Source of the DNA: Escherichia coli
GTDB taxonomy: Bacteria > Pseudomonadota > Gammaproteobacteria > Enterobacterales > Enterobacteriaceae
Assembly (NCBI RefSeq): GCF_003790525.1
Contig: NZ_CP033635.1
Length of the DNA: 64,000 bases
Strand: one strand, 5' to 3'
How positions within the stretch are numbered: position 1 is the first letter of the stretch; each line of letters begins with the position of its first letter. Shown here piece after piece: positions 3,987 to 45,263 of the stretch. The translations under genes were made by a program, and so were the position numbers. Under the pieces are notes generated by a model that made no database searches, was not told the DNA's origin, and worked only from the letters and a program-made list of their open reading frames with translations.

Positions 3987-5330
3987 ATGGATCAGACATA
4001 TTCTCTGGAGTCATTCCTCAACCATGTCCAAAAGCGCGACCCGAATCAAACCGAGTTCGCGCAAGCCGTTCGTGAAGTAATGACCACACTCTGGCCTTTT
4101 CTTGAACAAAATCCAAAATATCGCCAGATGTCATTACTGGAGCGTCTGGTTGAACCGGAGCGCGTGATCCAGTTTCGCGTGGTATGGGTTGATGATCGCA
4201 ACCAGGTACAGGTCAACCGTGCATGGCGTGTGCAGTTCAGTTCTGCCATCGGCCCGTACAAAGGCGGTATGCGCTTCCATCCGTCAGTTAACCTTTCCAT
4301 TCTCAAATTCCTCGGCTTCGAACAAACCTTCAAAAATGCCCTGACTACTCTGCCGATGGGCGGTGGTAAAGGCGGCAGCGATTTCGATCCGAAAGGAAAA
4401 AGCGAAGGTGAAGTGATGCGTTTTTGCCAGGCGCTGATGACTGAACTGTATCGCCACCTGGGCGCGGATACCGACGTTCCGGCAGGTGATATCGGGGTTG
4501 GTGGTCGTGAAGTCGGCTTTATGGCGGGGATGATGAAAAAGCTCTCCAACAATACCGCCTGCGTCTTCACCGGTAAGGGCCTTTCATTTGGCGGCAGTCT
4601 TATTCGCCCGGAAGCTACCGGATACGGTCTGGTTTATTTCACAGAAGCAATGCTAAAACGCCACGGTATGGGTTTTGAAGGAATGCGCGTTTCCGTTTCT
4701 GGCTCCGGCAACGTCGCCCAGTACGCTATCGAAAAAGCGATGGAATTTGGTGCTCGTGTGATCACTGCGTCAGACTCCAGTGGCACTGTAGTTGATGAAA
4801 GCGGATTCACGAAAGAGAAACTGGCACGTCTTATCGAAATCAAAGCCAGCCGCGATGGTCGAGTGGCAGATTACGCCAAAGAATTTGGTCTGGTCTATCT
4901 CGAAGGCCAACAACCGTGGTCTGTACCGGTTGATATCGCCCTGCCTTGCGCCACCCAGAACGAACTGGATGTTGACGCCGCGCATCAGCTTATCGCCAAT
5001 GGCGTTAAAGCCGTCGCCGAAGGGGCAAATATGCCGACCACCATCGAAGCGACTGAACTGTTCCAACAGGCAGGCGTACTGTTTGCACCGGGTAAAGCGG
5101 CTAATGCTGGCGGTGTAGCAACATCGGGCCTGGAAATGGCGCAAAACGCTGCGCGCCTGGGCTGGAAAGCCGAGAAAGTTGACGCACGTTTGCATCACAT
5201 CATGCTGGATATCCACCATGCCTGTGTTGAGCATGGTGGTGAAGGTGAGCAAACCAACTACGTGCAGGGCGCGAACATTGCCGGTTTTGTGAAGGTTGCG
5301 GATGCGATGTTAAGCCAGGGCGTGATTTAA
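3987..5330 (+). CDS. gdhA: NADP-specific glutamate dehydrogenase
   Basis: 447 aa; GGGKGGSDFDPKGKS nucleotide/active-site motif; strong codon bias. Confidence 0.95.
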   Translation: MDQTYSLESFLNHVQKRDPNQTEFAQAVREVMTTLWPFLEQNPKYRQMSLLERLVEPERVIQFRVVWVDDRNQVQVNRAWRVQFSSAIGPYKGGMRFHPSVNLSILKFLGFEQTFKNALTTLPMGGGKGGSDFDPKGKSEGEVMRFCQALMTELYRHLGADTDVPAGDIGVGGREVGFMAGMMKKLSNNTACVFTGKGLSFGGSLIRPEATGYGLVYFTEAMLKRHGMGFEGMRVSVSGSGNVAQYAIEKAMEFGARVITASDSSGTVVDESGFTKEKLARLIEIKASRDGRVADYAKEFGLVYLEGQQPWSVPVDIALPCATQNELDVDAAHQLIANGVKAVAEGANMPTTIEATELFQQAGVLFAPGKAANAGGVATSGLEMAQNAARLGWKAEKVDARLHHIMLDIHHACVEHGGEGEQTNYVQGANIAGFVKVADAMLSQGVI

Positions 5331-5338
5331 GACAATTG

Positions 5339-5372
5339 TGCCGGATACAGCGCAAACGCCTTATCCGGCCAT
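5339..5372. repeat. REP-like palindromic unit (CCGGATA...GCCTTATCCGGCC)
   Basis: Imperfect palindrome of the enterobacterial REP type located 10 bp after the gdhA stop. Confidence 0.6.
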
Positions 5373-5406
5373 AAAAATCTTCAGTATCAGATGGTTGAAA
5401 GAACCT

Positions 5407-7362
5407 TTATATTATCACTCCATTGCCCGCCTCTTCTGATGACGGGCTTTTTTTCGGCGCTCTCTTGCGTGGCGAATCCTTTTTCTTCCCTTCTCCACCG
5501 CCGGGAGCCATTATTCCCCGAAACTGCCTTACCGACGTGCGCTTTGCCTGATCAATCAACTGGTACAATGTCCCCACCAGCGGCTGCATAAAGTCCTGAT
5601 AGCGACACTGCTTTTCACTGATTTGCGTCAGCACCGATTCCCAGTGCGCGGTCATGTCCGGTCGCGTCGCCATTTCTGGCAGCGAATGGAATAGCGCTTT
5701 TCCGGCGTCGGTGGAGTGGATATAGCGCCCTTTTTTGGTCAGGAAACCACGCTTGAACAACAGTTCAATAATCCCGGCACGGGTTGCTTCTGTCCCCAGA
5801 CCATCGGTCGCACGAAGGATCTTTTTCAGATCTTTGTCCTGCACAAAGCGTGCGATCCCGGTCATCGCCGAAAGCAGTGTTGCATCGGTAAAATGGCGCG
5901 GCGGCTGGGTTTGCCGCTCTACCACTTCACCTTTTTCGCACAACAATTCATCGCCTTTCGCCACCACAGGCAGCGGCATGCCGTCGTTTTCTTCATCGCG
6001 CTCTTTGCTGCCTAACAGCGTGCGCCAGCCTGCTTCAGCAAGAAAACGGGCTTTAGCGACAAATTTGCCTTTGGCAATGTCCAGTTCGATAACACACTTG
6101 CGGAACACCGCATCCGGGCAGAACTGCATCAAGTACTGACGGGCAATCAGGTTATAGACCTTCGCTTCGTTCTCCGTCAGGTTGATCGCAGAACTCCGTG
6201 CGGTCGGAATGATGGCGTGGTGCGCATCGACCTTTTTGTCATCCCAACAGCGGTTGCGTATATCTGGATCTACCACTGGCTGCGGCAACAGATCCGGTGC
6301 ATGAACGCTGATAGCATTCATCACCGCGTGGCGTCCGGCAAAATGTTCTTCTGGCAAATAGCGGCAATCGGAACGCGGATAAGTGATTAGCTTGTGCGTT
6401 TCGTACAGCTTCTGGCAGATATCAAGCACGTTCTGCGCGCTCAGACCAAAACGTTTAGCCGCTTCAATCTGCAACGCCGAAAGCGAAAAAGGAAGCGGCG
6501 CGGATTCTGATTCCCGTTTATCGTTATAGCTGGTGACAATAGCTGGTTGACCACTAATGCGGTTAACCACATGCTCCGCCAGTGGACGATGTAACAAGCG
6601 CCCTTCTTCATCCTGGTACGGTTCACACGCTTCGCTCGGTTGCCAGATAGCGGTAAACCGCTCATCGGCAGGTGTCACGATATGTGCTTTGACTTCAAAG
6701 AAATCTTTCGCCACGAAGTTTTCAATCTCTTCGTCGCGGCGCACCACCAGTCCGAGTACGGGCGTCTGCACGCGTCCCACGGAAAGTACGCCCTGATAAC
6801 CGGCATTGCGACCGAGAATGGTGTAAGCGCGGGTCATATTGATGCCGTACAGCCAGTCAGCTCGGGCTCGCGCCAGTGCAGAAACGCACAGCGGTACAAA
6901 CTCGCTATTGGAGCGAAGACGATCGATCGCCCGCTCAACCGCCTGCGGGTTCAGGTCGTTTATCAAACAACGCTGTACCTGCTGGCGCTTTTCCGGTGCC
7001 AGTTGCAGGTAGTCCAGCACTTCATCCACCAGCAGTTGCCCTTCGCGATCCGGGTCTCCGGCGTGAACGATTTCGCTGGCTTCATGCAGGAAGCGTTTGA
7101 TGACATTAAGTTGTTTAGTCACGGAGGGTCGGGGCTGTAATTGCCACTTTTCCGGGACAATTGGCAAATCCGCAAGATTCCAGCGCGCATAGCGGCTGTC
7201 GTAGGCGTCTGGCTGCGCCTGCTCAAGCAGGTGACCGATACACCAGGTCACCACCTGACCATTACCGCACTCGATAAAGCCATCGCCTTTCCGGTGCGGT
7301 TTAGGCAGGACATCAGCAATGGCGCGCGCCAGACTCGGTTTTTCGGCAATAAACAACCGCAT
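5407..7362 (-). CDS. topB: DNA topoisomerase III
   Basis: Starts [19 protein letters not shown] (Toprim N-terminus); 651 aa from this ATG; ORF-track 19-codon extension would run into selD. Confidence 0.9.
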
Positions 7363-7366
7363 TGAA

Positions 7367-8410
7367 TTAACGGATCTCAACCATGGCACGACCGCCGCGC
7401 GCTGGCACCAGTTCGCCAATCGCCGTCAGTTCAATGCCAAACTCGGCGGCTGTAGCTTTGACCTCATTTTCTGCTTCCGGAATGACCGCCAGCAGCAAAC
7501 CGCCAGAAGTTTGCGGATCGCACAGCAGATCGCGCACTTCACGCGGCATTTCACCCATCAGATGACCGTAGCTGGCAAAGTTACGTTCGGTGCCGCCAGG
7601 CACTGCGCCCAACTTAATGTACTCTTCAACCCCAGGCAATTTCGGGATCGCGTCATAGTCGACGCGCGCCTGCACACCTGCGCCCTGACACATTTCGCTT
7701 AAATGCCCCAGCAAACCAAAACCCGTAACGTCTGTCATCGCTTTTACGCCTTCGATGTTGGCAAAGGACGCGCCTGCGATGTTCATCCGGCACATCACTT
7801 CCGTCGCCAATCCCTGATGTTCTGGTTTAAGCAGTGATTTTTTCTCAGCCGTGGTAAGAACGCCAATCCCCAGCGGTTTCGTCAGGAACAGTTTGCATCC
7901 GGCTTGTGCGGTACTGTTTTTCTTCACCCGCTCGGTCGGTACGATCCCCGTTACCGCCAGACCAAAAATCGGCTCCGGCGCATCGATGGAGTGACCGCCA
8001 GCCAGCGCAATACCCGCCTGACGGCATGCATAGCGTCCACCTTCGGTCACTTCGCGGGCAATTTCCGGGGAAAGTTTGTTAATCGGCCAGCCGAGGATCG
8101 CAATCGCCATAATCGGTTTGCCGCCCATTGCGAAGATATCGCTGATGGCGTTAGTCGCCGCAATGCGGCCAAAATCGAAAGGATTATCAACGATCGGCAT
8201 AAAGAAGTCGGTGGTACTGATAACGCTGGTGCCATTGCCCAGATCGTACACCGCCGCATCGTCGCGGGTTTCATTACCCACAAGCAAATTCGGATCAACA
8301 AACTTCGCCTGCTCACTGTGCAGGATGGTTTCCAACACTTTTGGGGAAATTTTACAGCCGCAACCAGCGCCGTGGCTGTATTGGGTCAAACGAATCGAGT
8401 TCTCGCTCAT
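7367..8410 (-). CDS. selD: selenide, water dikinase (selenophosphate synthetase)
   Basis: 347 aa starting [23 protein letters not shown]; stop lies 4 nt upstream of topB start (co-transcription likely). Confidence 0.92.
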
Positions 8411-43652: not shown

Positions 43653-45263
43653 ATGATGAGCAATGTTAAGAAAAAAGATGTGCCGCTGATAAGCATCAGT
43701 CTGGTGGCCATTCTTTTCATCGCAGCTGCATTAAGCCTTTTCCCACAACAATCGGCCGACGCGGCCAACGCTATATACACTTTTGTTACGCGTACGTTAG
43801 GTTCCGCCGTACAGGTATTGGTTTTGCTGGCAATGGGACTGGTGATTTATTTAGCCACCAGTAAATACGGCAATATTCGTCTTGGCGAAGGAAAACCGGA
43901 ATACAGCACGCTCTCCTGGCTGTTTATGTTTATTTGTGCCGGTTTAGGTTCTTCTACGCTTTATTGGGGGGTTGCTGAATGGGCCTATTATTATCAAACA
44001 CCTGGATTAAATATCGCACCGCGTTCACAACAGGCACTCGAATTTAGCGTCCCTTACTCCTTCTTCCACTGGGGCATCAGCGCCTGGGCAACTTATACGC
44101 TGGCCTCATTAATCATGGCTTATCACTTTCATGTGCGGAAAAACAAAGGTCTGAGTCTTTCCGGCATTATTGCCGCGATTACCGGCGTTCGCCCGCAAGG
44201 CCCGTGGGGAAAACTGGTCGATTTGATGTTCCTGATCGCCACTGTCGGCGCACTGACCATTTCCCTTGTTGTCACCGCAGCAACCTTTACCCGTGGGCTT
44301 TCCGCGCTGACCGGTTTACCCGATAATTTCACCGTGCAGGCATTTGTGATCCTGCTTTCCGGCGGCATTTTTTGCCTAAGCTCATGGATTGGTATCAACA
44401 ACGGTTTGCAACGTCTGAGCAAAATGGTTGGCTGGGGCGCGTTCCTGCTGCCATTACTGGTGCTCATTGTCGGCCCAACCGAATTTATTACCAACAGCAT
44501 CATCAATGCCATCGGCCTGACCACGCAAAACTTCCTGCAAATGAGCTTATTCACCGATCCGCTTGGCGATGGTTCATTTACCCGCAACTGGACCGTTTTC
44601 TACTGGCTGTGGTGGATCTCATACACCCCTGGCGTAGCAATGTTTGTCACCCGCGTTTCCCGCGGTCGTAAGATTAAAGAAGTTATCTGGGGACTGATCC
44701 TCGGCAGCACCGTCGGTTGCTGGTTCTTCTTCGGCGTAATGGAAAGCTATGCCATTCACCAGTTTATCAATGGCGTAATCAACGTCCCACAGGTGCTGGA
44801 AACACTGGGCGGCGAGACAGCTGTGCAGCAAGTTCTGATGTCGTTGCCAGCCGGTAAATTGTTCCTCGCCGCATACCTGGGCGTGATGATTATTTTCCTT
44901 GCCTCGCATATGGATGCAGTGGCCTACACCATGGCGGCGACCAGTACGCGTAATCTCCAGGAAGGTGACGATCCTGACCGTGGGCTGCGTCTTTTCTGGT
45001 GCGTGGTAATTACCCTGATCCCGCTTTCAATTCTTTTCACTGGCGCGTCGCTGGAAACGATGAAAACCACCGTCGTACTCACAGCCCTTCCGTTCCTCGT
45101 CATTTTACTGGTGAAAGTCGGCGGATTTATTCGCTGGCTGAAACAGGATTACGCCGACATTCCGGCTCATCAAGTTGAATATTATCTCCCGCAGACACCG
45201 GTTGAAGCCCTGGAAAAAACACCAGTGCTCCCTGCGGGAACCGTATTCAAAGGCGACAACTGA
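43653..45263 (+). CDS. yeaV: BCCT-family transporter (betaine/carnitine/choline type)
   Basis: ATG at 43653 preceded by AGGAG at 7-nt spacing; polytopic membrane protein; I recall the reference protein as shorter, so the start is uncertain. Confidence 0.8.

Follow-up and report, generated by a model that had tools for sequence, protein, structure and literature searches.

A probably ancestral gdhA-topB junction with a degenerate REP palindrome and without ynjI in Escherichia coli

Binding and cleavage of REP elements (palindromic units) by TnpA-REP require a GTAG tetranucleotide (PMC3333891), and the insertion sequence IS1397 has been found experimentally to be REP-specific (Clement et al. 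1999; Wilde et al. 2001, 2003; as cited in PMC1525189). REPs located <16 nt from a stop codon were reported to lower translation of the upstream gene and to stall terminating ribosomes (Liang, Rudd and Deutscher 2015, as cited in PMC12306157). The gene ynjI encodes an inner-membrane protein, is activated by BglJ-RcsB and is partly repressed by H-NS/StpA (PMC3950696); the basic C-terminal tails of type IA topoisomerases aid nucleic-acid binding (PMC7587558). The short stretch between gdhA and topB of one Escherichia coli strain is compared here with K-12, other E. coli genomes and enterobacterial outgroups.

The DNA analysed (64 kb at its full length, referred to as the window) was 100% identical to E. 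coli SMS-3-5 (NC_010498.1), in which the RefSeq annotation has gdhA and topB directly adjoining with nothing between them, in the gene order ynjE, ynjF, nudG, ynjH, gdhA, topB, selD, ydjA, sppA. The stop positions and the 76-bp spacer given in the original prediction agreed with both sequence and annotation: gdhA ends with TAA at 5328-5330, and the topB stop was seen as the complement TTA at 5407-5409, the open frame of topB being listed at 5407-7419 and its annotated start being the ATG given in Table 1. The spacer had also been described as free of ORFs, and the ORF listing confirmed this; the sole mechanical ORF touching the spacer, one of 66 aa at 5391-5591 on the + strand, runs antisense to topB, and none is listed within the spacer because it is too short. 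GC content at the junction showed an ordinary intergenic dip only.

Table 1. Coordinates of the features of the gdhA-topB junction (window positions unless another record is named).
Feature	Position	Strand	Description
gdhA	3987..5330	+	NADP-specific glutamate dehydrogenase, 447 aa; RefSeq WP_000373044.1 in SMS-3-5
gdhA 3' edge of polymorphic block	5310..5321	+	6 substitutions vs K-12 in last 21 nt
gdhA-topB spacer, gene-free	5331..5406		76 bp; counterpart ~6 kb in CFT073 and strain 16843, 1,284 bp in K-12
Single REP (palindromic unit)	5340..5369		arms 5340-5352 and 5357-5369, CAAA loop
GCAA	5352..5355	+	last stem base and loop of REP; 4-bp target duplicated in W13-16
topB	5407..7362	-	DNA topoisomerase III, 651 aa from ATG at 7362; CDS 1,956 nt
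topB tail part of block	5407..5569	-	last ~54 codons, Gly-/Lys-rich basic tail
Island allele	L094:12615-17125 (CFT073); L006:9064-14681 (strain 16843)		at the site of window 5331-5406

The palindrome that had been called REP-like (CCGGATACAGCGCAAACGCCTTATCCGGCC at 5341-5370) was recovered and lies wholly outside genes, between the two stop codons; it begins 9 nt past the gdhA stop, and 37 nt separate its end from the topB stop. The arms of 13 nt each have 85% complementarity and enclose a 4-nt loop, and a mismatch of 2 nt in the stem (CA at 5348-5349 opposite CT at 5360-5361) forms an internal loop in both folds. Fold energies were -18.7 kcal/mol (z-score -5.1) for the + strand and -20.6 kcal/mol (z-score -4.1) for the - strand; since 0/200 shuffles were as stable, the hairpin is not a product of chance. 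With a 38-nt query against 5,423 records, at least 40 REP-like copies per E. coli genome were found in unannotated or intergenic DNA. A looser half-site search of the 64-kb window returned one copy of this REP subtype only, and a search of the window with the strict REP consensus pattern gave no match, because the spacer REP deviates from it (ACAG; consensus AAGG or GCGG). Against Rfam, the element matched the REP-derived naRNA4 (RF02564) below threshold (32.8 bits, E = 6e-4).

At the foot of the REP (5370-5373) the window reads CATA in place of the conserved GTAG/CTAC tetranucleotide, and in the alignment its GGCCATA stands against GGCCTAC in the orthologous REPs of E. albertii and of a divergent Escherichia (L007). 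With the CTAC/GTAG lost, the spacer REP should escape binding and cutting by REP-associated transposases under the criteria of PMC3333891. The window REP and its 3' sequence align base for base with the REP that lies nearer to topB in E. albertii and L007. By descent and by sequence family the palindrome is classed as a REP, in a degenerate, non-canonical copy; the loss of CTAC marks a decaying copy, and this REP could be without selected function. The orthologous gdhA-topB REP of E. coli O139:H1 W13-16 has an IS1397-family element inserted exactly at its loop, with a duplication of GCAA, and the REP is recognised as a target by this element, the REP specificity of which is taken from the studies cited in PMC1525189.

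The junction was then placed in a census of 5,426 complete E. coli genomes, 5,425 of which gave a match. The empty, window-type junction was found in 1,515 genomes at 98-100% identity (hosts human, pig, whale and others), and ynjI was carried by 3,506 genomes, K-12, B, C and O157:H7 strains among them. A third state, an island with genes for Hsp70-family and J-domain proteins, was counted in 348 genomes at >= 95% identity, with an arithmetic remainder of ~404; empty, ynjI and island counts together cover about 99% of the genomes. With three states found, the site is multi-allelic, with at least three alleles, and is not a two-state indel. The original prediction of a strain-variable site within core synteny held in so far as empty and ynjI-bearing junctions are both common, and needs refinement as to the small indel that it had proposed, given the third allele and the diverged block (5310-5569) described below.

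The island allele (~5-6 kb, 42% GC) encodes an Hsp70-family protein (566 aa) and one or two ~650-aa proteins in which an N-terminal J-domain is combined with Sel1 repeats; CFT073 has in addition a 266-aa protein without a Pfam match. In strain 16843 a ~127-bp dispersed repeat is located between topB and the Hsp70 gene (L006:8757-8884), in place of the REP; almost all E. coli genomes have 1-6 matches to it at 90-92% identity, and in length and sequence it resembles an ERIC/IRU element. In ECE170 (L005:391-1806) the island J-domain gene is cut by IS1, gdhA and its upstream genes are missing and spy is adjacent, which is an IS-mediated deletion of gdhA in a clinical isolate. Two further ideas on the cargo genes were tried and discarded. 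As a remnant or homologue of the island J-domain proteins, ynjI gave nothing in BLASTP and has unrelated Pfam assignments (DUF1266 vs DnaJ and Sel1); as known anti-phage systems, ynjI and the island proteins gave no system-level match in PADLOC, with weak PtuA matches on the Sel1 repeats and a marginal Hsp70 match.

The statement in the original prediction that K-12 has ynjI between the two genes proved correct: in MG1655, gdhA (b1761) and topB (b1763) are separated by an interval of 1,284 bp with ynjI (b1762, - strand, 346 aa). Neither the same 76-bp junction in K-12 nor a location of ynjI elsewhere was seen, and either would have spoken against the prediction. K-12 YnjI matched Pfam DUF1266 (PF06889) at 1.8e-25, the GC content of its gene is 41.3% vs 53-55% in flanking gdhA and topB, and a database of 5.8 billion proteins held 8 clusters of YnjI homologues at E <= 1e-5. 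The REPs adjoining gdhA in K-12 are a y/z-type pair, unlike the REP of the window. The window had been predicted to represent the gene-less allele, and it does: with K-12 YnjI and two divergent variants as queries, tblastn found no ynjI in the 64-kb window, and neither alignment nor tblastn detected a ynjI remnant in the spacer. A weak match at 43911-44069 (E = 3e-4 to 0.4) falls inside an ORF for a 536-aa multi-pass membrane transporter and was discarded as transmembrane noise.

Among E. coli genomes two classes of ynjI were seen, with ~68% protein identity (L087:5001-6032 vs L002:5832-6872). Their divergent segment has 55-75% nucleotide identity over ~930 nt; identity is ~100% in the spacers on either side and in the first ~44 codons. 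This pattern looks like cassette-type allelic replacement and suggests, from the sequences, diversifying selection on the DUF1266 part.

The window aligns with K-12 at 96-99% identity as far as 5309 and from 5570 on, with dense differences between these positions; the mismatch map likewise has dense mismatches up to 5569 and sparse ones beyond. In sequence terms the difference between window and K-12 is a block replacement over 5310-5569, and not a clean indel. At the gdhA edge, five substitutions fall within six bases (5310-5315, CTGGCG to TTAAGC), giving A442S (LAQGVI to LSQGVI), and this cluster looks like one multi-nucleotide event at the edge of the block. The cluster is derived in the window type, since K-12, E. 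albertii and the divergent Escherichia (L007) share the other state, and the window haplotype is therefore not ancestral in every detail.

At the other edge the block covers the end of topB. The tail of the window is 68.7% identical to that of K-12, vs 96.7% in the rest of the gene, and 58.9% identical to that of the island allele, vs 98.8% in the gene body. Compared with E. albertii the values for the tail are 83.5% (window) and 76.4% (K-12), and the tail identities fit a window type that would be a vertically inherited Escherichia haplotype. TopB has 651 aa in the window, 653 aa in K-12 and 648 aa in the island allele; the comparison upheld the first two lengths, which had been predicted. 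Eight Lys/Arg residues are kept in every tail compared, despite the turnover of the sequence. In E. albertii NBRC 107761 an in-frame stop precedes the basic tail at the 3' end of topB (L008, ~7524-7620; ...APSSGE(stop)KKKASPRKR...); it would shorten TopB by ~30 residues and may be a true nonsense allele or else an error of the draft assembly.

Outgroups were collected by a GdhA-seeded scan with one genome per species, in which 12 enterobacterial loci with gdhA-topB synteny kept were among the matches listed; no Salmonella or E. fergusonii was among these matches, and the sample is thin. In 10 of the 12 loci listed, gdhA and topB adjoin without ynjI, separated by spacers of 29-179 bp that mostly have REP-type palindromes. 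These ten include E. albertii, the divergent Escherichia (a genome labelled 'E. coli', but with only 91.5% identity in the topB body), Pseudocitrobacter, two Citrobacter and Kluyvera. Other inserts between gdhA and topB were seen in Superficieibacter electus and in strain RIT691 (972 bp and ~4 kb; L013:7345-8316 and L016:7345-11376), which suggests that the junction is a hotspot beyond Escherichia.

On sequence comparison, and with this thin outgroup sample, the empty junction is ancestral and ynjI is acquired, because adjacency in the outgroups, the orthologous REP, the low GC content of ynjI, its regulation by H-NS and BglJ-RcsB and the small number of YnjI homologues all point the same way. 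By its homologues, ynjI appears nearly confined to E. coli. Since the REP of the window is orthologous to that of E. albertii and the REPs of K-12 are different, it is native to the spacer and not a scar of ynjI loss; the proposal that the REP marks the junction of an indel was accordingly abandoned. As a whole, the best explanation is an ancestral, cargo-free junction with an inherited, decayed REP, of which K-12 has a different haplotype and the island strains a third (rough probability 0.85). The window junction is the one carried by SMS-3-5 and ~28% of complete E. coli genomes, with a REP that probably came down from the Escherichia ancestor. The low-GC haplotype of K-12 (REP pair, ynjI with its promoter, topB tail) replaces the stretch 5310-5569 of the window; its most likely route of entry is homologous recombination via the core genes on either side.

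An alternative to horizontal import is that ynjI represents an ancient balanced or trans-specific polymorphism, and it is a Pseudocitrobacter-like gut-metagenome contig that speaks for it. On this contig a homologue of ynjI, with 80% aa identity to that of K-12, is located at the same site, between topB and gdhA (L092:4875-6141), so ynjI at this site would be old. P. faecalis DSM 27453 is without ynjI and has a 147-bp BIME spacer (L009:7345-7491), with flanks 98-99% identical to those of the metagenome contig; the presence and absence of ynjI in Pseudocitrobacter means that the same polymorphism exists in another genus. A recent import of the K-12 haplotype from Pseudocitrobacter or Citrobacter was considered and rejected: alike as the tail proteins look, nucleotide identity reaches just ~76%, which is no higher than with other Escherichia. 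The K-12 haplotype may stem from an older import or from an ancient polymorphism.

The distinct TopB tails invite a broader idea, namely that the stretch from the gdhA stop to ~54 codons inside topB is an old multi-allelic cassette maintained by selection, balancing or diversifying. No cargo, ynjI, and Hsp70 with J-domain/Sel1 proteins could then each travel with a Topo III basic tail of their own, and the two ynjI classes, ~68% identical between identical flanks, would belong to the same picture. This is unlikely; if it were true, the cargo may serve a conflict-related function, or the Topo III tails may be functionally tuned, as opposed to being a neutral by-product of recombination.

That the window allele is instead the derived one, left when a K-12-like ancestor lost ynjI, for example by REP-REP recombination with the REP as a scar, is quite improbable, although K-12 has REPs/BIMEs on the gdhA side of ynjI, REP-REP recombination is a known route of rearrangement (PMC1525189) and most E. 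coli genomes carry ynjI. The Pseudocitrobacter pair, in which ynjI is cleanly present or absent and a BIME abuts ynjI, would also agree with such a loss. Against these points, the REP of the window is of a type that differs from the y/z pair of K-12 and has its orthologues in E. albertii and L007, both free of ynjI; the diverged block extends into topB by 163 nt, and a deletion would leave no such block; and ynjI itself is of low GC content, almost restricted to E. coli, and has left no remnant that could be found.

Within the ancestral-junction reading, the REP hairpin may act on both convergent transcripts. No intrinsic-terminator-like or promoter-like site was called in 5200-5550, and since no intrinsic terminator lies between the convergent genes, neither the gdhA nor the topB transcript would have any strong structure in its 3' UTR other than this hairpin. 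By analogy with REPs at other loci the hairpin is probably a barrier to exonucleases at the 3' end and a stabiliser of the transcript, or an element that sets the transcript end. The distance to the gdhA stop (9 nt) falls within the <16-nt range and that to the topB stop (37 nt) outside it; because of this position after the gdhA stop, the REP may damp GdhA translation, as judged from REPs elsewhere.

A dedicated bidirectional intrinsic terminator of gdhA and topB, with a coincidental likeness to REPs, would also account for the presence, between convergent genes, of a GC-rich hairpin as stable as about -19 to -21 kcal/mol, and an A5 run lies on the 3' side of the hairpin on the + strand, with T5 on its 5' side for the - strand. 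For neither strand are these T/A runs on the side where a terminator would need them: past the stem the + strand reads ATAAAAA and the - strand ACAATTG (AUAAAAA and ACAAUUG in the respective transcripts), neither of which is a T-run. Together with the absence of a called terminator-like site in 5200-5550, the copy number of the sequence family (at least 40 per genome), its targeting by IS1397 and the partial naRNA4 match, this makes a terminator highly unlikely. That a single genome was misassembled or misannotated can be dismissed as a practically negligible possibility, given the same contiguous junction in 1,515 independent complete genomes from varied hosts.

For annotation, it follows from the ancestral-junction reading that K-12 should not be taken as the default at gdhA-topB and that the spacer of SMS-3-5 would be the native arrangement, with ynjI as an accessory, horizontally acquired gene that roughly one third of complete E. 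coli genomes are without. Primers or synteny annotation based on K-12 will go wrong over the last ~54 codons of topB, and the length and tail of TopB (648, 651 or 653 aa) can serve as an allele marker for the downstream content. The locus is a compact recombination hotspot flanked by core genes, with breakpoints that reach into a housekeeping gene. In kind this is ordinary accessory-gene polymorphism and already known biology; genome and annotation are public, REPs, IS1397 targeting and ynjI have all been described, and beyond correct annotation the importance is small.

Compared with the REP/PU/BIME elements of E. coli (Gilson, Bachellier; Ton-Hoang et al. 2012, PMC3333891), the element of the window is alike in being an imperfect, GC-rich palindrome of ~30 nt with a stem mismatch, in its extragenic position in the 3' UTR of convergent genes, in its many similar copies per genome, in being a target of IS1397 at the loop and in its orthology to canonical, CTAC-bearing REPs of sister species; it differs in being a single unit and not a BIME pair, and in the loss of GTAG/CTAC. 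Compared with described IS1397 insertions into palindromic units, the loop of the REP is likewise the point hit, with a 4-bp direct repeat in W13-16; the window itself is without the IS, and the W13-16 insertion informs on the target. The gdhA-ynjI-topB arrangement of K-12 shares flanks and synteny with the window (ynjE, ynjF, nudG, ynjH, gdhA ... topB, selD, ydjA, sppA) and, beyond the block, 96-99% identity; on the K-12 side stand the y/z REP pair, ynjI, a 127-bp promoter region and the 653-aa TopB with another tail. The CFT073-type island occupies the same site next to the same GdhA (WP_000373044.1) and a topB body 98.8% identical to that of the window, and it is flanked by hairpins with T-runs, terminator-like on reading the sequence, and by the ~127-bp repeat in place of the REP; it goes with the third TopB tail, that of the 648-aa protein.
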